Virus record (IMG/VR): IMGVR_UViG_3300028859_000042
Length of the DNA stretch: 33,420 bases
From: a virus
Direction: 5' to 3' (one strand)
Under the pieces are notes generated by a model that did no database searches, had not been told where the DNA came from, and saw nothing but the letters and a program-made list of their open reading frames with translations. The translations under genes were made by a program, and so were the position numbers. This document shows positions 11,202 to 30,060 of the stretch, piece by piece. Positions within the stretch are counted from its first letter, which is position 1. Every line of letters starts with the position of its first letter.

Positions 11202-11420
11202 TAAACTATTATACCATTTAATATCATAATATTTTTATATTTGTTAAAGTCAAGTTTTTGACGAATTATTTCACATTTTTTATTATATTCTTTAAGTGTT
11301 TTTGCGCCTTCGTCTACACACTGATAATGAGTTTGTACAAGAATATCAAATTCTAATTGAGCATTTTTAGCATCTTCACGTTTTTCTTATACATAAAGTA
11401 CTAGTTCTTCTGTAGTTCCG
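11200..11420 (-). ncRNA. candidate omegaRNA/reRNA region downstream of (and overlapping) the TnpB 3' end
   Basis: A 220-nt stretch immediately 3' of tnpB with no credible ORF. TnpB/Fanzor guide RNAs are encoded at this position. The last ~113 nt of tnpB plus 3 nt beyond its stop are conserved (~86% identity) in a decayed second copy at 28548-28660, which marks the element's right end near 11418. This is an inference, not a structure I can fold by eye. Confidence 0.3.
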
Positions 11421-12878
11421 TCAACTTAAACATGCACAAATTTGTACAGGAAGTGACGTTTGGATGTTGTTTGATAACATTCCTTGTCCGAACACACTAT
11501 TCTTTATAAATTTAAAGAAATCGTAGTCGCATTTAATTTTAACTGGATTACACAGTTTAAACATATAATTTTTCAGCCATGAAAAATCATTATTTTTGTT
11601 TGATTTTTTAATATGATTAACTGCACCATTTAAATCTGCATTCATTGTTTTATTTATTAGTTTGTCTGTAAACAATCCACGTTTAGAACGAACACCATTT
11701 AGTTCTTTATCTAACGGATTATTAACATCATCACTAACACAAGAACACTTGGAAGTGTAGGCTTCGTTAATTATATCTACTTGAATTCCAACTTCATTAC
11801 TTTTATATTGAATGTAATCCAATAATTTAATGAAAGGAATCTGTATGAAATTTTGTTTTACTTTATTATTTAATTTGCAGTCACCATTATATTTTAAGCT
11901 AGCTAAATTATATGATATGGTTAGGTTTGTTACTGAATTTAATTTCAAGAACTCAACTACCCTTTTACTTACTTTATGAAACTGATCATAAAAATAACGA
12001 TTCCTCTTTTCATAAAGAAATGTCTTATACTTCCTTAATTCTATTCCTCTTTGAGTCCACTTGGAAGCATATTTAATATTATTTTTACTTAAACTATATT
12101 CTATTACTTCGTTAGAAATTGATTCATTTAATTTAGCTATAAAACGATTGAATTTTGAGTTATAAGTCTTAAAGTGATTTCCATCTACAATAATTGATTT
12201 AGATTTTTTATCATCAATAAATATTGCAAGCAAATTATTGACTCCAACATCAATCCCTGCTTCTTTTATGTTCAAATTACTATTTAAAATATCTTCAGTT
12301 AAATAGTTCAAGTGTAAATAAATTTCTTTGTTTGAGTAAACTATTTTAAGGCTTTGAATGTTTTTTGGTAGAAATTCGTGTTTGAAATCAATGTAAAACA
12401 TTTTATTACTTAAGTTAATTCCAATTTTATCTTTTTTCTTGAAGGAAAATGCAATTTGATCAACTAAAATTGAATATTTTGTTACCAAGAATAGCTTTTT
12501 AGCACTGGGTGTATTTGCCTTAACTTTTTGTTTGATTTTAGTGAAAAATGCTTTATAACTTACTTTAACTCTCTTAATCAAATCAGAAATATTATGAATT
12601 TTAAGACATTTAGATAAACGAATCAACTCAATCATTTTATCATAATTTTTATATTTATCTTTAATAAACTTTACTTTGTCTTTTTCCAAACCGCCAGCAG
12701 TTTCAGCAAGAACTGCTCTCATGACTTTATAGTTAGAAAGTAAATTAAAATCTTCTTGGTTTTCCTTCAATATTATAAGGTATAAGTTTTCGAAGTGACG
12801 ATATTTGAAAATATAATCACTCATCATTTTTTTATATTTATCTTCTTTAATGTGTATTATGAAGGTTCTATTATTCAT
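11421..12878 (-). CDS. tnpB: TnpB/Fanzor-like RuvC nuclease (IS605 OrfB family)
   Basis: 485 aa. RuvC-I is GIDVGVNNLLAIF, RuvC-II is EAYTSKCSC and RuvC-III is NADLNGAVNHI, so the D/E/D triad is intact. The usual CxxC...CxxC zinc ribbon between RuvC-II and RuvC-III is degenerate, but there is a C-terminal Cys cluster (CNPVKIKC...ICAC). No TnpA partner is present. Confidence 0.8.
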   Translation of the reverse strand: MNNRTFIIHIKEDKYKKMMSDYIFKYRHFENLYLIILKENQEDFNLLSNYKVMRAVLAETAGGLEKDKVKFIKDKYKNYDKMIELIRLSKCLKIHNISDLIKRVKVSYKAFFTKIKQKVKANTPSAKKLFLVTKYSILVDQIAFSFKKKDKIGINLSNKMFYIDFKHEFLPKNIQSLKIVYSNKEIYLHLNYLTEDILNSNLNIKEAGIDVGVNNLLAIFIDDKKSKSIIVDGNHFKTYNSKFNRFIAKLNESISNEVIEYSLSKNNIKYASKWTQRGIELRKYKTFLYEKRNRYFYDQFHKVSKRVVEFLKLNSVTNLTISYNLASLKYNGDCKLNNKVKQNFIQIPFIKLLDYIQYKSNEVGIQVDIINEAYTSKCSCVSDDVNNPLDKELNGVRSKRGLFTDKLINKTMNADLNGAVNHIKKSNKNNDFSWLKNYMFKLCNPVKIKCDYDFFKFIKNSVFGQGMLSNNIQTSLPVQICACLS

Positions 12879-12887
12879 TCAATTACT

Positions 12888-12950
12888 TGATTTTATTGCG
12901 TATTATATATAAATATTTAATAATTGTTTAATTTATTTACACTTTTTTAT
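12888..12950. repeat. copy 1 of a ~60-nt direct repeat (core tatatataaatatTtaataatt)
   Basis: Lies 10-70 nt upstream of the tnpB start on the minus strand. A near-identical core recurs at 13440-13500 upstream of ORF 13107..13418. Confidence 0.5.
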
Positions 12951-13106
12951 AGTTTTGTTTAAATTTTTTGTAACTGAATCTAACCTCTTGCTCTTATGCT
13001 TTTAGCTTCACCATATTGACTATTTTCATCACCACTTGAATATGAAAAGCCAATTTCTTTTATAAATTCTTCTGTGAAAATTTTTAACATAACTTTATAT
13101 TTTTAA

Positions 13107-23112: not shown

Positions 23113-23183
23113 GCTCATTTAGTCCAGTGATAGGGCGGTAGCCTCTAAAACTACCTACATCGGTTTGAATCCGATAGTGAGCA
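23113..23183 (+). tRNA. tRNA with anticodon CUA (UAG-decoding suppressor-type tRNA)
   Basis: The cloverleaf folds by hand. The 7-bp acceptor stem is gctcatt/agtgagc with one G-U. The D stem is gtcc/gggc and the T stem atcgg/ccgat. The T loop is tttgaat. The anticodon stem is gtagc/(a)ctac around the 7-nt loop cuCUAaa, with U33 and A37 present. The discriminator is A and no CCA is encoded. A19 in the D loop together with U56 in the T loop is a covariant replacement of the G19-C56 tertiary pair. The anticodon lies at 23145-23147. Confidence 0.65.
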
Positions 23184-23216
23184 CAAATATATTTTTCATA
23201 AGGTATATTTATTTTT

Positions 23217-25857: not shown

Positions 25858-26064
25858 ATGATGGATAATTTAAATTATCTTAATTGTAATTATAAAATTC
25901 ATATTCAATATCAAGTAAATGATTATATAAACATAAATGATGTTTTTATATATCCATATTATGCAGCCAATGAATGTGATATTATATTAACAGATTTTGA
26001 TTTTATTAAATATTATAGAAAACAAAAACTTAAAGAAATATGTTTAAACCAGGAGATAGAGTAG
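25858..26064 (+). CDS. family B-related (tail DFIKYYRKQKLKEICLNQEIE; atypical head)
   Basis: 68 aa. Confidence 0.5.
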   Translation: MMDNLNYLNCNYKIHIQYQVNDYININDVFIYPYYAANECDIILTDFDFIKYYRKQKLKEICLNQEIE

Positions 26065-26282
26065 TTTGCATAAATGATGAAAATAATTGTGATCCAAATA
26101 TAAATCTAATTAAATATAATATTTATATTGTAAAAGAGTTACATGAATATACCAATAATAGAATAATATTAGAATATCATGAAAATAGTTTATATTATAA
26201 TACTAGATTTATATTATTAAAAGAATATAGAAAAGAAAAACTCAAACAAATAGAATTATGTTCAAACCAGGAGATAAAGTAG
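26040..26282 (+). CDS. family B member (MFKPGDRVVCIND...)
   Basis: 80 aa, tail LLKEYRKEKLKQIELCSNQEIK. Confidence 0.6.
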   Translation: MFKPGDRVVCINDENNCDPNINLIKYNIYIVKELHEYTNNRIILEYHENSLYYNTRFILLKEYRKEKLKQIELCSNQEIK

Positions 26283-26494
26283 TGTGTATTAATGATAAAT
26301 ATTTTGATAATGATAAATCTATAATAGAAATGATTAAATATAATATTTATACAATAAATAGAATTGCAGAAATTTCAGGTAGCAATACAGATAGAGTTGT
26401 ATTATATGAATGTAAACGTATGTATTTTTCACACAGATTCATATCATTAAAAGAATATAGAAAACAAAAATTATTAGAAATATGTTCAAAGTAG
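26258..26494 (+). CDS. family B member (MFKPGDKVVCIND...)
   Basis: 78 aa. Confidence 0.6.
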   Translation: MFKPGDKVVCINDKYFDNDKSIIEMIKYNIYTINRIAEISGSNTDRVVLYECKRMYFSHRFISLKEYRKQKLLEICSK

Positions 26495-26748
26495 GAGATA
26501 AAGTAGTTTGTATTGATGTTAAAAAATATAATAATAATAATTATAATGTAAACCTAATTAAATATAATATTTATACAATTAATATAGATTTTTCAGTTTT
26601 TGATAGATCAAGTTTTGGTAGATCAAGAGTTGAAATAAAAGAATGTTGTAATGAGACATTTTATTCAGAGAGATTTATATTATTAAAAGAATATAGAAAA
26701 CAAAAACTCAAACAAATAGAATTATGTTCAAACCAGGAGATAAAGTAG
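26482..26748 (+). CDS. family B member (MFKVGDKVVCIDV...)
   Basis: 88 aa. Confidence 0.6.
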   Translation: MFKVGDKVVCIDVKKYNNNNYNVNLIKYNIYTINIDFSVFDRSSFGRSRVEIKECCNETFYSERFILLKEYRKQKLKQIELCSNQEIK

Positions 26749-26963
26749 TTTGCATTGATCAACAATATAGAAAAAAATACAATTTACCTAATACAATATT
26801 AGAAGTTACAGAATATAAAGATATAAGATATAAAAAATTATTTAGTGAAAATTTTATTATTTGTTTCAAAGATATAAAATATGGATATAATTATAATTGT
26901 TTTATGCTATTAAAAGAATATCGTAAATTAAAATTATTAAAATTAAATAAAAATGATAAGTGA
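26724..26963 (+). CDS. family B member (MFKPGDKVVCIDQ...)
   Basis: 79 aa. Confidence 0.6.
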   Translation: MFKPGDKVVCIDQQYRKKYNLPNTILEVTEYKDIRYKKLFSENFIICFKDIKYGYNYNCFMLLKEYRKLKLLKLNKNDK

Positions 26964-27234
26964 ATCAAGTCTTGTTAATTATATAGAAAATCTAAATCTT
27001 AGAAAAACCCATGAATGTTTTGATACTAACTATATAATTGATAATAATTATATAATATGCATTGAATCATCTACTAATGTTTTTTTCATAGATAAAAAAA
27101 TGAATTCGAACCTGTATATTTTCATAATTAATATTGAAAAATTAAAAGATATTTATTATAAAAAAACTGGTAAAAATATAGAAATTTTAATGAGAAAAGA
27201 AAAACTAAAAAAATTAGAAGAATGTTCAAGATAA
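26953..27234 (+). CDS. tail-family protein with a different head (...LMRKEKLKKLEECSR)
   Basis: 93 aa inserted within the array. Confidence 0.5.
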   Translation: MISESSLVNYIENLNLRKTHECFDTNYIIDNNYIICIESSTNVFFIDKKMNSNLYIFIINIEKLKDIYYKKTGKNIEILMRKEKLKKLEECSR

Positions 27235-27446
27235 GAGATAGAGTAGTTTGCATTGATAATTCTTATTTATATGATATAAATCTATTACAATTAAATAATA
27301 TTTATATAATTGAAGATATTTTTAGTTATGATACAGAAAATAATTATATTGGTATGATATTAGAAAAATATAATTTTGAATTTAATTCTAATAGATTTAT
27401 ATCATTAAAAGAATATAGAAAACAAAAAATATTAAAATTATGTTAA
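27222..27446 (+). CDS. family B member (MFKIRDRVVCIDN...)
   Basis: 74 aa. Confidence 0.6.
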   Translation: MFKIRDRVVCIDNSYLYDINLLQLNNIYIIEDIFSYDTENNYIGMILEKYNFEFNSNRFISLKEYRKQKILKLC

Positions 27447-27685
27447 AACCAGGAGATAAAGTAATTTGTATTGATAATTCTTATTTAGATGATAATAGTA
27501 TGAGAAAATTATTATTAAACCATATTTATATAATTAAACTATGCTTTACATATCAATCAGATCATTTTAATTATATTATATTAGAAAATGATTTTGAATA
27601 TCATGAAAATAGATTTATAACATTAAAAGAATATAGAAAACAAAAACTATTAAAATTATGTTCAAACCAGGAGATAAGTTATTAG
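27440..27685 (+). CDS. family B member (MLKPGDKVICIDN...)
   Basis: 81 aa. Confidence 0.6.
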   Translation: MLKPGDKVICIDNSYLDDNSMRKLLLNHIYIIKLCFTYQSDHFNYIILENDFEYHENRFITLKEYRKQKLLKLCSNQEISY

Positions 27686-27906
27686 AAATATCAACTAACA
27701 AAATTTTCACATTCTGTGATTATATAAAAACTATATCATATTCATCAAATTATAATGATATGATAGTGAATGATTATGATTATGAAAATGGTTTAATATC
27801 AATCAATGAAGATGCAGAAAATTATCATAGAATTAATAAATATTTATCTATTAAAGAATGTAGAAAAGAAAAACTTAAAAAATTATATAAAGATTTTAAT
27901 ATTTAA
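27658..27906 (+). CDS. family B-derived, diverged (MFKPGDKLLEIST...SIKECRKEKLKKLYKDFNI)
   Basis: 82 aa. Confidence 0.5.
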   Translation: MFKPGDKLLEISTNKIFTFCDYIKTISYSSNYNDMIVNDYDYENGLISINEDAENYHRINKYLSIKECRKEKLKKLYKDFNI

Positions 27907-27999
27907 AGTTAAAAATCAATAAAATAAATAATATATTAATATCTAAATCATTTATATTTTATATCTTTGTCATCATTATAATAATTATTTAAAATACTC

Positions 28000-28266
28000 A
28001 TGAAAATAACATATACTAAGCAAAAAGGGGCGAGAATTAAATATTCATTCAAAAGACCATTTTCAATTAATATAAATGGTTATTGGTGGAATTGTGAATT
28101 ATTAAGATGGGAAAAAGAAGATGACTTCAATTTTTATAAATATGAATATACTAGTAATTATTATTCTTTAAAATCAGTTAAAAGATTTCTTATAAAATAT
28201 AAAGCACCAAAAGGTAAAGATTCCGTTACAAAAAAATTAAATAAAAATATAAAAAAGTGTAAATAA
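28000..28266 (+). CDS. small basic hypothetical protein
   Basis: 88-aa ORF. Confidence 0.45.
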   Translation: MKITYTKQKGARIKYSFKRPFSININGYWWNCELLRWEKEDDFNFYKYEYTSNYYSLKSVKRFLIKYKAPKGKDSVTKKLNKNIKKCK

Positions 28267-28479
28267 AATAAACTTTTTTAAAATATTATACTATTAAATA
28301 TAATTAAACAAATAGTTCTTTGATGTCATGATAAAATGGTTGTTAGTTAAAAACTTAACTAACGTAAAATCATAAAAGTAATAAGTTTGATTAAAAATCA
28401 AACTGAAACTTTTAATCGTTATACATATCAATAATATTGATTACAGTAAACATAGAACGATTAATACACTTTTAAATAC

Positions 28480-28665
28480 ATCTTAACAACGGACTATAAT
28501 AAGTCTTAAAAATGGTTGTTCGTTATGTAGTTTAAATAATTAAAAGCGACTACGATTTCTTTAAATTATTAAAGAATAGTGTGTTCGGATAAAGAATTTC
28601 ATCAAACGAAATTCAAACGTCACAGCAAGTACAAATTTGTATAAGTTTAAGTTGACGGTATACCT
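28480..28665 (+). pseudogene. decayed TnpB remnant retaining the element's 3' end (putative orphan omegaRNA scaffold)
   Basis: 28548-28660 matches the reverse complement of 11420-11540 (the last ~113 nt of tnpB plus 3 nt) at about 86% identity (16 mismatches, my manual count), ending exactly at gttgacgg. Further upstream similarity to tnpB is patchy, for example aaaatggttgttcgtt against aaatggtgttcgtt, and there is a ~140-nt internal deletion. No ORF survives. Confidence 0.6.
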
Positions 28666-28765
28666 ATTAATATATCAACCATGTGGATTAATCATGATAT
28701 GAAAGTTATCATAAAAAAAGATTTAGTTGGAAGTAAATTAAGAAAAAGAAAATTATTAAAAATAA

Positions 28766-28990
28766 ATGAAAATAGGAGATAAAGTTTTATTTACTGATTA
28801 TTTTTATGAACATCATAAATATATAACAGATAATAGATATAATATTTTTACAATCAAAGATTATTTTAGCGATAATTTCACCATTATTTCTTTATATGAA
28901 CTTCCAATGTATTATTTTGAACCAAAAAATTTAATAACAGTATCAGAAATTAGAAAAAAAAAATTAAAAAAATTAAAAATATATGAATAA
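28766..28990 (+). CDS. family B-like (MKIGDKVLFTD...TVSEIRKKKLKKLKIYE)
   Basis: 74 aa. Confidence 0.55.
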   Translation: MKIGDKVLFTDYFYEHHKYITDNRYNIFTIKDYFSDNFTIISLYELPMYYFEPKNLITVSEIRKKKLKKLKIYE

Positions 28991-29534
28991 ATTCGGAGTA
29001 ATATTAGCAAGAGTTCAGCCAGTACATAATGGTCATATGGCATTAATTAAAAAGGCATATGATGAAAATGAAAATGTAGTATTTTTAGTTGGAAGTGCGG
29101 ATAAAGTTGACTCAAGAAATCCAATTCCAGTTAGCATTAGAATTGAAATGCTAAAAGATGCATTAAAAGAAGCTAAGTTGATTGATAAATGTTTAATAAT
29201 ACCATTAGATGATTTAACTTCAGAAAGTGATAATTCTATTGAATGGGGTTTTTATCTTTATACTAAAATAGTAGATCAAATTAAAGATAGTTGTTTCACT
29301 ATGTATTATTCAGATGGATTTGAAATCATCACTAAATGGTTTCCAGGATTTATGTTCAAAAATAATGTATCTCTGGTGCTATTAGCAAGAGGAACTGTTG
29401 AAGATGGTGTATCTGCTACCGAAGTTAGAAAAGCTATACTGAGCAATTCTCCTGAGCTAAAAAACATGGTTCCAAAATCAGTCTATAATAACAGAAATAC
29501 GATTAAATCATTTATTGAATTAAATAAAGAATGA
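28983..29534 (+). CDS. nicotinamide/nicotinate mononucleotide adenylyltransferase (NadM-type NMNAT)
   Basis: 183 aa. ARVQPVHNGH is the (H/T)xGH motif and SATEVRK is the SxTxxR motif. The sequence is collinear with archaeal NadM (GRFQPFHKGHLEVIKK...; ...[23 protein letters not shown] against SATEVRKAILSNSPELKNMVPKSV). Confidence 0.8.
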   Translation: MNKFGVILARVQPVHNGHMALIKKAYDENENVVFLVGSADKVDSRNPIPVSIRIEMLKDALKEAKLIDKCLIIPLDDLTSESDNSIEWGFYLYTKIVDQIKDSCFTMYYSDGFEIITKWFPGFMFKNNVSLVLLARGTVEDGVSATEVRKAILSNSPELKNMVPKSVYNNRNTIKSFIELNKE

Positions 29535-29815
29535 AAAATATTTATATAACAAAAGATGAACTTGATAATTTCACAGAAGAACAATTAAATAGATTAGTAT
29601 TTGTTTTTTATGATGGGCAAGGAGACACTAGCGTTATGATATGGAAAGATTTTATTGAATTATCAAAAGAATGGGAGAAAGAACTTGGAATTGGATTTCC
29701 AAAAAATTCAGATAAATTTGATTTTTTATATAAAGATAGTGAACTAAATGGTAATATAAGTGAATTTCTATATTTTGATTTTAATAATGAATACAAAAGA
29801 ATTTATTTTAAATAA
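29531..29815 (+). CDS. hypothetical protein
   Basis: 94-aa ORF between the NMNAT and the RNA ligase. Confidence 0.45.
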   Translation: MKNIYITKDELDNFTEEQLNRLVFVFYDGQGDTSVMIWKDFIELSKEWEKELGIGFPKNSDKFDFLYKDSELNGNISEFLYFDFNNEYKRIYFK

Positions 29816-29823
29816 TAATTATT

Positions 29824-30060
29824 ATGGCAAAAGATTATTTTGATAAAGAATTTAAAAAAATGTGGATGGAAACGTGCATTGAATCTTGGAATGATCAATT
29901 TCTTGGAATATACTATACAAAACCATTTGAGGAAATTATTTATCTACATAATAATATAGAAGAATTAGAAAGATATATTTCAGCATATGAAAAAAAATAT
30001 GATACTAAACTAACATATAGATTAGATAACGGTTGCTCTTATATTTCACAATTAAAATAG
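29824..30060 (+). CDS. hypothetical protein
   Basis: 78-aa ORF. Confidence 0.45.
   Translation: MAKDYFDKEFKKMWMETCIESWNDQFLGIYYTKPFEEIIYLHNNIEELERYISAYEKKYDTKLTYRLDNGCSYISQLK

Follow-up and report, generated by a model that had tools for sequence, protein, structure and literature searches.

Guide-only derivatives of TnpB transposons are a known concept from the PATEs of the IS200/IS605 group, which are found in bacterial chromosomes. [quoted passage not shown] 2023, PMC10055086). IS607 elements follow other rules: a GG core is strictly required, donor joints are scarless, and 40 bp of LE plus 60 bp of RE suffice for excision. Their RE scaffold overlaps the 3′ end of tnpB, their TAM (TGGG) ends in the core GG, and experiments have shown IS607 TnpB to be as active with an omegaRNA supplied in trans as with one in cis. 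In the study behind these rules, natural IS607 elements have tnpB, with tnpA and a group I intron as optional components, and the protein-less versions are laboratory mini-constructs (Zedaveinyte et al., 10.1101/2023.11.20.567912). Two further comparisons are the MITEs of bacterial insertion sequences, which are short, non-coding, multi-copy, bear both parental ends, and are mobilized in trans, and the homing endonuclease genes of T4-like phages, free-standing or intron-borne (SegF, I-TevI and others), which are copied by recombinational repair once a co-infecting relative has been cut at its element-free allele and which show presence/absence polymorphism between close strains (PMC13565253).

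Here we describe a locus that shares features with each of these systems, in a 33,420-nucleotide stretch of viral DNA (IMG/VR record IMGVR_UViG_3300028859_000042; hereafter the window). The lineage carrying it is an uncultivated huge phage, very AT-rich at roughly 21% GC. We conclude that the locus is a discrete, protein-less, non-autonomous derivative of the IS607 (serine-recombinase) family and that it interrupts a 112-aa phage gene at a GG. Like PATEs, it keeps both ends of a TnpB-bearing element and the RE scaffold, with the flank as predicted guide; unlike them, it has no such hairpin ends, has a GG core and a complete relative with a MerR-resolvase TnpA, and was found in a phage, not in the chromosome of a bacterium. 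Because of the serine recombinase in its family and the logic of the GG core, we do not file it as a PATE, although it would be PATE-like in its working. With IS607 elements it shares the GG core at both junctions, scarless empty sites, a scaffold corresponding to the tnpB 3′ end, and a candidate TAM (RARGG) ending in the core GG, but it occurs naturally in guide-only form, has a foreign core of 240 nt, exists in at least two copies, and lacks an intron. By a limited literature search, we found no description of a natural protein-less IS607 derivative. It resembles a MITE in all the respects listed above if it is mobilized in trans as we expect, but lacks terminal inverted repeats and a target-site duplication and contains a functional-looking RNA gene. 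Compared with the T4-like homing genes, the target would be recognized through an RNA guide and a short motif instead of by a protein, and nuclease gene and spreading unit lie ~15.8 kb apart in the window.

The whole mini-element spans 444 nt (28215–28658, +), and its mobility shows in related contigs. Two contigs with the empty site (L019 and L021) fuse window ...28216 to 28657... without a scar and with flanks 99–100% identical, and this empty allele (...CACCAAAAGGTA/TACCTATTAAT...) encodes an intact 112-aa ORF. In the window, the same gene is split into an 88-aa 5′ ORF (28000–28266, +), of which residues 1–72 belong to the interrupted gene and the last 16 codons (tail KDSVTKKLNKNIKKCK) and the stop come from the mini-element LE, and a 33-aa 3′ ORF (28681–28782, +) that starts at an internal Met of the 112-aa protein. 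A GG precedes the element (28213–28214) and another terminates it (28657–28658), the junctions being ambiguous over GGTA (28213–28216 = 28657–28660). A second copy (copy C; that of the window is copy B) in contigs L025/L026 is 98.4–98.7% identical to B over 450 nt including the core, differing at only 6–7 positions; both of its flanks differ from those of B, and it also interrupts an ORF. The empty sites and the second copy show that the element has moved, and we conclude that it entered the phage gene recently. Sample ERZ27248620 contains both an empty allele of B (L017) and a contig with tnpB (L116). Four contigs (L012–L015) that are identical to the window up to 28660 and then continue into another flank were first read as a strain rearrangement at the RE boundary, a reading that we rejected: they join the B left flank to the C right flank, and their elements are B/C mosaics, those in L013 and L015 being identical to B throughout. 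Because the stretches identical between B and C exceed the assembler k-mer, a mis-join and real recombination or gene conversion are inseparable in these four contigs. Searching IMG/VR with the core pattern returned copy C only, and the RE and core patterns had zero matches in 185,579 species genomes, so no host or bacterial source was identified. Megablast of 27000–30000 against isolate phages gave no match, and protein searches found only distant phage relatives (TnpB ≤35%, RNA ligase ≤42%).

The mini-element comprises an LE of ~80 nt (28215–28294, +), a core of 240 nt (28295–28534, +), and an RE (28535–28658, +) that is 86% identical to 11541–11418 (−), the 3′ end of a tnpB element that we call locus A. 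The original prediction had described an alignment of ~86% with the tnpB 3′ end, stopping at GTTGACGG, at a locus without an ORF in a window with an intact TnpB, and these observations held. BLASTN aligned 28538–28658 (+) to 11538–11418 (−) at 85.95% over 121 nt (E = 1.5e–32), that is, to the last 118 nt of tnpB plus 3 nt, and the match ends at GTTGACGG (28651–28658; 11425–11418), 3 nt beyond the TGA of tnpB. The interval 28267–28765 is without an ORF of at least 60 aa, and TnpB is an ORF of 485 aa (11421–12878, −) with the Pfam domains OrfB_IS605 and Cas12f1-like_TNB. The prediction's reading of the locus as a decayed second tnpB copy fared worse. The patchy similarity to tnpB and the ~140-nt deletion that it placed upstream of the match are within chance: the best local alignment of the core with the tnpB body scores 33, compared with 30.0 ± 3.3 for dinucleotide shuffles, 56 of 300 of which reach 33, and tblastx and blastn of the core against all relatives gave AT-rich noise only, with no relation detected to tnpA, tnpB, or any other sequence compared. 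The motif aaaatggttgttcgtt, taken there for a tnpB remnant, is one of the two copies of a direct repeat of 17 nt in the core (28333–28349 and 28509–28525), which also holds several short AT-rich hairpins. A gradient of conservation toward the 3′ end, proposed as a check, is absent in that form. The LE, which had been missed, is 84–85% identical to that of locus A (28216–28277 and 28208–28294 (+) to 12983–12922 and 12990–12905 (−), respectively), so conservation is found at both termini and is not 3′-biased. The interval 28300–28700 is indeed GC-richer, at 24.2% versus 21.0% for the window, but weakly so (75th percentile of 400-nt windows) and in the RE only (28.2%), the LE having 11.5%. Instead of a decayed copy, the locus is a discrete element with ends at ~85% and 86% identity around an unrelated core.

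Locus A (11418–12983, −) is an IS607-type element without tnpA, with an LE (12983–~12905), tnpB (12878–11421), and the RE, bounded by a flanking GG (12985–12984) and a terminal GG (11419–11418). The RuvC triad of its TnpB (D210/E372/D415) is intact and is invariant in a 20-sequence family alignment. One relative, L125, is without the locus A element; this empty site was located via the upstream gene, the contigs reached via the downstream gene breaking off close to the RE. The window has no serine transposase, as expected for non-autonomous copies. L109 has one: this contig, with a TnpB 95% identical to that of locus A, encodes, between LE and tnpB, a 202-aa serine recombinase upstream of and overlapping tnpB, with MerR_1 HTH (residues 2–56) and Resolvase (residues 59–185) domains. 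Since a 95%-identical TnpB adjoins this MerR-resolvase serine transposase, we assign the family to the IS607 type. A search of IMG/VR with the L109 transposase found only a 42% relative in a giant-virus bin and no close relative; this, with the absence of a transposase from the window, weighs against the reading that we favor below. Both mini-element ends are shared with the autonomous element; the LE is 88% identical to L109 259–308, directly upstream of the serine-recombinase gene, and the LE motif GATTCCGTTACAAAAAA upstream of that gene is shared. The GG core dinucleotide occurs at both junctions of B (AAAAGG/TAAAG...GACGG/TATACC), C (TGAAGG/TAAAG...GACGG/TACTGG), L109 (AAAAGG/TTAGA...GACGG/TTATTG), and A (AAGAGG/TTAGA...GACGG/AACTAC), as well as in the target, and the empty sites in L019, L021, and L125 are scarless. 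These GG junctions, scarless sites, and end sizes match the published IS607 rules (10.1101/2023.11.20.567912) and support the family assignment. Judged by their similarity, the mini-element ends can presumably be recognized by the TnpA of the autonomous element, and the presence/absence alleles and two insertion sites fit excision and integration by TnpA via a circular double-stranded DNA intermediate.

We found that the RE has the features of a complete omegaRNA scaffold. In locus A, the scaffold (11418–11541, −) takes in the final 40 codons of tnpB and extends 3 nt beyond the stop. A covariance model (R1) scores 143 bits for A and 141 bits for B at full length, matches only these two places in the window, and detects a full-length, sense-strand module in 79 tnpB relatives, in each at the 3′ end of the gene. 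The consensus fold comprises three stem-loop domains. In an alignment of nine sequences, paired cells make up 97% and double changes are seen at 15 pairs, a level reached by 0 of 500 shuffles (slid controls gave 2–4); in a set of 77 distinct sequences, pairing covers 90.5% of cells and 481 cells are compensatory, compared with 127 ± 13 in shuffles. In this larger set, pairing is 92–97% in helices 2–5, which show many compensatory changes, and weaker in helix 1 (73%). An independent MAFFT/RNAalifold analysis with 120 nt of extra upstream sequence predicted no structure before GCGACTACG, ~11 nt inside the point at which the homology of the orphan begins. Rfam found nothing in either RE or the core, and only a tRNA across the window. 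The module is thus encoded in sense orientation across the 3′ end of tnpB, stops at the right boundary, and has a covarying structure, and on these alignments the right end retained by the mini-element corresponds exactly to the structured RNA that tnpB genes of this clade carry at their 3′ ends.

The orphan scaffold in B forms 33 of the 34 consensus pairs (fold z = –2.4). It differs from A at 17 of 120 positions: nine are unpaired, two pairs are doubly compensated, three single changes keep the pair, and one breaks it. Both double changes lie in one hairpin, as a proposed search for compensatory substitutions between the two copies had anticipated. RE identity to A, L109, L110, and L111 ranges from 86 to 90%, the orphan being nearer to L110/L111-type elements (89–90%) than to the resident locus A (86%), with whose TnpB we assume it to be compatible. 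Compared with the nearest full-length relative, L111, it has 12 differences, of which one is pair-breaking (binomial p ~0.01 under a rough neutral expectation of 0.43). Constraint on the RNA, which the original prediction had argued from differential decay, is supported on other grounds, by covariation across the TnpB clade. This covariation, seen in aligned sequences, demonstrates constraint in the TnpB family and not specifically in the mini-element lineage. The RE is needed for transposition anyway, and an intact scaffold in a young element could be inherited instead of having been selected at the mini-element stage.

As had been predicted, the RE abuts a flank different from that of locus A, which would give it a different guide. 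The predicted guide of the orphan omegaRNA (TATACCTATTAATATATCAA, beginning TATACCTATTAATATATC; 28659–28678, +) lies directly 3′ of the RE, its length being assumed by analogy with other TnpB systems. The same sequence follows AAAAGG in the empty alleles L019 and L021, with a perfect match to 28659–28680, while in the window its only perfect match is itself, the others being AT-rich sequence with at least three mismatches. The predicted guide of locus A (AACTACAGAAGAACTAGTAC; 11398–11417, −) likewise follows AAAGAAGG in the element-free L125, where GAAGG precedes it. The left contexts of five insertion sites (AAAGG, GAAGG, AAAGG, GAAGG, and AGAGG) suggest AAGG/RARGG as a candidate TAM, derived from these five sites only. 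The RE ends in ...ACGG, one mismatch from the putative AAGG in the last four positions; as a matter of self/target discrimination, this counts against homing. That the locus is a stand-alone guide holds as far as a complete RNA module in an ORF-less element goes, and use in trans would be its most plausible function.

We favor, with a probability of roughly 0.6, the interpretation that the mini-element is a non-autonomous OMEGA element reduced to its guide and dependent on TnpB in trans for its retention or homing. The TnpA serine transposase of a complete element of the L109 type would move it, with a double-stranded circle as the intermediate and the GG core as the crossover point. The mini-element would be transcribed by read-through of the co-oriented interrupted gene or from an internal promoter. 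TnpB made elsewhere, from locus A or from a closer cognate elsewhere in the genome, would bind the 124-nt right-end scaffold and mature an omegaRNA whose guide is the adjacent flank (TATACCTATTAATATATC...). The complex would then cut element-free phage genomes carrying AAGG followed by the exact guide sequence, whether these arise by excision or belong to co-infecting relatives, and recombinational repair from an element-bearing genome would restore or spread the element. In this way a neighboring TnpB could probably use the guide module to copy the element into phage genomes that are without it.

The main competing explanation, which we consider unlikely, is that the mini-element is an inert hitch-hiker: an IS607 deletion derivative that survives through its recombinase-binding ends, with the omegaRNA fold as an unexpressed or unused passenger. 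The few differences between B and C would have left too little time for decay, and no promoter or terminator signal in the mini-element rises above chance (sigma-70-like matches at 28277–28304 and 28471–28500 belong to a set of five found versus 6.6 expected). The transposition ends also overlap the scaffold, and the published RE requirement of ~60 bp would explain part of the conservation without RNA. However, the retained RE of 124 nt is twice that minimum, and its 5′ limit falls just upstream of the clade-wide RNA start. The RE differs between B and C by three changes, all neutral for the structure (two lie in a loop, and the third is U-A to U·G), pair-breaking changes relative to L111 are fewer than roughly expected under neutrality, and perfect natural targets are present. 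RNA-guided regulators derived from TnpB exist (PMC10705468), and the orphan guide differs from that of locus A, so the element might instead supply a trans-acting regulatory or anti-competitor guide that directs TnpB away from its own empty site to a locus of the host or of a rival phage. We regard this as very unlikely: the adjacent flank necessarily forms the guide, the empty allele matches it perfectly, within the window it perfectly matches nothing but itself, and the intact RuvC triad points to a nuclease rather than a repressor.

Two other origins are less probable still. Descent from a full tnpB copy, by segmental duplication or an old insertion with decay of the coding region, internal deletion, and selective retention of the 3′ RNA part, would account for the 121-nt match and the missing ORF, and any mini-element of this kind probably goes back, ultimately, to a full element that suffered a deletion. 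As an account of the present locus it is nonetheless contradicted, and extremely unlikely, given a core without significant similarity to tnpB or tnpA as DNA or in translation, an LE conserved as well as the RE, near-identity of the whole 450 nt at a second locus, and scarless absence from close relatives. An IStron-like intron–transposon hybrid that restores the 112-aa gene by self-splicing at the RNA level was suggested by the five insertions, which are all co-oriented with the interrupted ORF and in the same codon phase, and by the terminal G of the element; IS607-family IStrons with an omegaRNA at the 3′ splice site are known (10.1101/2023.11.20.567912). We give this idea hardly any credence. 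Rfam returned zero matches at E ≤ 10 in 28200–28720 to group I (models included), group II, or other families, the full-length relatives hold only ~90–110 nt between LE and first gene, too short for an intron core, and the 5′ exon would end in G, not U. We also rejected selection or splicing as the cause of the co-orientation and phase, because 73% of RARGG occurrences in the window are on the sense strand with GG at codon positions 1–2, so that five of five is expected by chance (p ~0.2); the regularity reflects a purine-rich target motif and codon usage.

If the mini-element is indeed a guide served by TnpB in trans, a broader arrangement can be tentatively proposed, which we consider possible but doubtful: one huge-phage tnpB may serve several dispersed guide-only satellites (at least two, in different genes), each with an address of its own, as a natural split gene drive. 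During co-infection, the nuclease with satellite omegaRNAs would cut rival genomes at every element-free site, converting these sites and co-converting flanking markers, or damaging competitors. If true, this would amount to RNA-guided homing and marker exclusion between phages by protein-less IS607 derivatives. The filled and empty alleles, the second copy, the tnpA-less tnpB copy, and the complete relative are all recoverable from public metagenomes and so provide a ready-made natural system in which TnpB-omegaRNA homing between co-infecting phages can be tested. "Non-restorative homing" has so far mainly been listed as a concept. The same system may show how nuclease and guide can separate in nature, and it supplies a compact, very AT-rich TnpB/omegaRNA pair with RARGG as candidate TAM.

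The protein-less mini-element B, which is 444 nt long (28215-28658, plus strand), is a discrete insertion. The contigs encoding the 74-aa protein downstream of B include L019 and L021, which join window position 28216 straight to 28657 (...AAAGCACCAAAAGGTA|TACCTATTAATATATCAACC...), and this junction yields an unbroken 112-aa ORF. In the window the same gene is split into an 88-aa and a 33-aa ORF, with the last 16 codons and the stop of the former supplied by B. The flanks of B are 99-100% identical to the empty-site contigs, and the presence/absence polymorphism is therefore recent. Because GGTA is present at both junctions, the boundary of B can be placed only within these four nucleotides.

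The original prediction had read B as a decayed copy of tnpB with a selectively kept 3' end. The alignment behind that reading is real: BLASTN pairs 28538-28658 (+) with 11538-11418 (-) of locus A, a tnpB element without tnpA (11418-12983, -; tnpB at 11421-12878, -), at 85.95% over 121 nt (E=1.5e-32), and the match terminates at GTTGACGG, 3 nt past the TGA of the 485-aa ORF. The patchy decay with a 140-nt deletion and the 3' conservation gradient are not, because the windowed dot plot of B against locus A contains exactly two conserved blocks around an unrelated core. The left block, missed earlier, pairs 28216-28277 with 12983-12922 at 85% and is longer by BLAST (28208-28294 versus 12990-12905, 84%). 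The best local score of the 240-nt core (28295-28534) against tnpB was 33, within the range of dinucleotide shuffles (30.0 ± 3.3, with 56/300 scoring at least 33), and tblastx of the core was negative; judged from these comparisons, the core is not related to tnpB. Viral and cellular collections held no homologue of the core except in copy C, a second copy of B. The core contains a 17-nt direct repeat, AAAATGGTTGTT(A/C)GTTA, at 28333-28349 and 28509-28525 (+), 176 nt apart; the latter is the motif that had been mistaken for a tnpB remnant. The GC content of 28300-28700 is 24.2%, at the 75th percentile of the window.

The ends belong to a transposon family that could be assigned through relatives, for which 197 TnpB homologues were collected and the closest placed on contigs. 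The 485-aa ORF of locus A is TnpB (Pfam OrfB_IS605 and Cas12f1-like_TNB), and its RuvC residues D210, E372 and D415 are invariant in 20 relatives. On contig L109, where TnpB is 95% identical, a 202-aa gene lies directly upstream of tnpB and overlaps it; its product carries a MerR HTH at the N terminus (2-56) and, after it, the catalytic domain of a resolvase (59-185); this inverted order of domains is the hallmark of serine transposases of the IS607 family. AAAAGG|TTAGATTCCGTTACAAAAAATTTAAAC, located upstream of this gene, is a homologue of the left block in A and B. From the L109 gene order and the shared left end (LE), three arrangements therefore emerge: LE-tnpA-tnpB/RE (right end) in L109, LE-tnpB/RE at locus A, where tnpA is deleted apart from roughly the last 25 nt at its 3' end, and LE-core-RE in B and C. 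No serine transposase was found in the window. GG is present at all junctions examined, in agreement with the strict GG core dinucleotide established by experiment for IS607 elements, which leave scarless donor joints and make no target duplication (10.1101/2023.11.20.567912).

Locus A has a less simple history. Contig L125, which is without this element, has two GG sites 286 nt apart (CAAGAGG|TATGAC and AAAGAAGG|AACTAC), and the 1566-nt element (12983-11418, -) stands in place of those 286 nt (L125 518-803), costing a 92-aa ORF its 3' portion and a 105-aa ORF its 5' portion; by this comparison, locus A appears to have arisen either by an insertion that was accompanied by deletion of neighbouring DNA or by two insertions recombining with each other. 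In L001 (4329-4451) and L112 (2832-2955), with tnpB identities of 82% and 75%, the RNA module is kept, the right end reads GACGA rather than GACGG, and no LE motif is recognisable upstream of tnpB; these elements have probably been immobilised, their LE and GG core having been lost. Positions 1-30 of L109 are the 3' end of a tRNA (GGTTCGAATCC...), so that insertion there was just downstream of a tRNA gene, within an 88-aa ORF. The host ORFs of both locus A and L109 stop at a TAG that arose where GG meets the element (GG|TTAG).

We compared the right ends of A, B, C, L109, L110, L111, L001, L112 and L032 (TnpB identity at least 52%). Their consensus has three domains: a compound stem-loop, a 7-bp hairpin, and a closing stem (CGTCA/TGACG) that encloses a further hairpin and is followed by G(G) and then the flank. 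The arms of the 7-bp hairpin are GAATGTT/AACATCC in A, GAATTTC/GAAATTC in B, GAATTTC/GAAGTTC in L001, L110 and L111, GAATAAC/GTTATTC in L112 and TTATCCTTAG/CTAAGGATAA in L032, where the closing stem is CGATG/CATCG. Across the nine, 97% of cells are paired and 15/34 pairs show double changes; 0/500 shuffles attained this, and slid controls gave 2-4. A covariance model of this module found full-length sense-strand matches at the tnpB 3' end at 79 further or original loci, and in the window only at 11416-11538 (-, 143 bits) and 28538-28660 (+, 141 bits). Over 77 distinct sequences, in an alignment fitted to the model, the paired fraction is 90.5% of cells, and compensatory cells number 481, versus 127 ± 13 for shuffles; pairing is 92-97% in helices 2-5 and 73% in helix 1. 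Because of that fitting, we repeated the analysis on 12 diverse relatives, each with 120 nt extra upstream, aligned by MAFFT alone. RNAalifold returned the same three domains, with compensatory changes in 22/33 pairs, and predicted no structure in the 120-nt upstream part. The structure begins at GCGACTACG and the homology between B and tnpB starts 11 nt ahead of it; thus, B keeps the whole structured module and no more of tnpB. Since IS607 transposition acts on double-stranded DNA and a right end of about 60 bp is enough (10.1101/2023.11.20.567912), and since G.U-type changes are tolerated on the sense strand only, the stems are best explained as RNA and, by position, as the omegaRNA scaffold. 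B differs from A at 17/120 positions. Nine of these lie outside the stems; two pairs have compensating changes on both sides, three single substitutions preserve or re-create a pair, and one outermost pair no longer forms. Each forms 33/34 pairs (fold z -2.4 for B and -1.9 for A).

IMG/VR scans with right-end, left-end and core patterns located copy C, a further occurrence of this 450-nt stretch, in L025/L026 and partly in L024/L028, at 98.4-98.7% identity to B, core included. Like B, it sits within an ORF, and both of its flanks differ from those of B (...GATTTTGAAGG|TAAAG...GACGG|TACTGGATT...). Contigs L012-L015 are window-identical to 28660 and continue into the right flank of C; their elements form a graded set of B/C mosaics, partly B-like in L012 and L014 and identical to B in L013 and L015. 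Possible causes are conversion of one copy by the other, allelic variants of C, or mis-joins brought about by the repeat; because the identical runs of B and C exceed the assembly k-mer, true recombination or gene conversion and mis-assembly are inseparable here, and we left these four contigs out of the evidence. L010 and L011 stop at window position 28377 and L018 begins at 28314; breaks or switches within the mini-element are common among the assemblies.

We regard the window as a piece of a huge phage that is uncultivated. It has 21% GC and tightly packed small ORFs, with genes for an RNA ligase, a T4_Y16D-family protein and a tRNA; viral contigs of 326-330 kb carry a relative of its tnpB, and no close isolate phage was found for it. 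Exact matches to window proteins came from JGI metagenomes of peat/bog type (3300029908-3300030041) and from ENA assemblies (ERZ272xxxxx). The tRNA (23113-23184, +; Rfam tRNA model 55 bits) has anticodon CTA, which reads the TAG stop, and is labelled 'Pyl' by ARAGORN, a sign that the phage may suppress amber codons or recode TAG. An 817-aa ORF (2518-4971, +) encodes a major-vault-protein-like product (Pfam MVP_shoulder, E=5.5e-29; Vault_3; Band_7/SPFH) in this phage-like genome. Small paralogous ORFs (about 65-95 aa) are arrayed at 25970-27700 (+) and 5600-7400 (-), with DNA identity high in patches (96.5% between 26205-26290 and 26671-26756) and related copies inverted at 5.6-6.8 kb.

The flank 3' of the right end of B, in the guide position, is TATACCTATTAATATATCAACC, the very sequence that L019 and L021, both empty alleles, carry after AAAAGG; another empty allele (L017) has one mismatch to it, at position 6. 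Likewise, the locus A flank AACTACAGAAGAAC comes after AAAGAAGG in L125. From the left contexts of five sites (AAAGG, GAAGG, AAAGG, GAAGG and AGAGG) we propose RARGG, the last GG being the core, as the putative transposon-adjacent motif (TAM), in analogy to the TGGG of CboTnpB (10.1101/2023.11.20.567912). The self junction reads ...ACGG-flank and the target AAGG-flank. Sample ERZ27248620 holds both L017 and a tnpB-bearing contig (L116), so at least one community contains the nuclease together with targets that lack the element. The anatomy of B, its mobility, its family and its RNA fold are demonstrated, as are the motifs of the nuclease and the existence of matching targets. Beyond these, we infer that B would be transcribed, plausibly by read-through because it is co-oriented with its host gene, that TnpB made in trans would mature scaffold and flank into an omegaRNA, and that the complex would cut element-free alleles, recombination then restoring or spreading B. 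An omegaRNA given in trans works with an IS607 TnpB (10.1101/2023.11.20.567912), and PATEs often encode omegaRNAs, necessarily used in trans (Meers et al., PMC10055086). The scaffold of B is 89-90% identical to the L110/L111 types and 86% to A, and the cognate TnpB may not be the resident one.

A decayed tnpB pseudogene is contradicted by the scarless empty sites, the near-identical copy C and the core without tnpB similarity; the original prediction thus picked out a real locus and guessed its likely role while misreading its nature. An orphan guide aimed at another locus found no support in the window. The regular orientation and phase of the insertions might have pointed to an IStron, but motif and codon usage account for this regularity and no intron core was found, making an IStron unlikely. 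A purely inert hitch-hiker deserves more weight, since the copies are young and the right end is needed for transposition in any case; however, the full module is retained exactly, at twice the minimal right-end length, and the few lineage-specific changes are structure-neutral; we consider inertness possible but less likely. We conclude that B is a naturally occurring, guide-only derivative of a TnpB transposon of IS607 type; it resides in a phage, and its empty sites are documented. Homing into co-infecting phages is a category in a 2026 review, and guide-only TnpB derivatives had already been anticipated conceptually; B provides a clean natural system in which to test for RNA-guided homing between phages.
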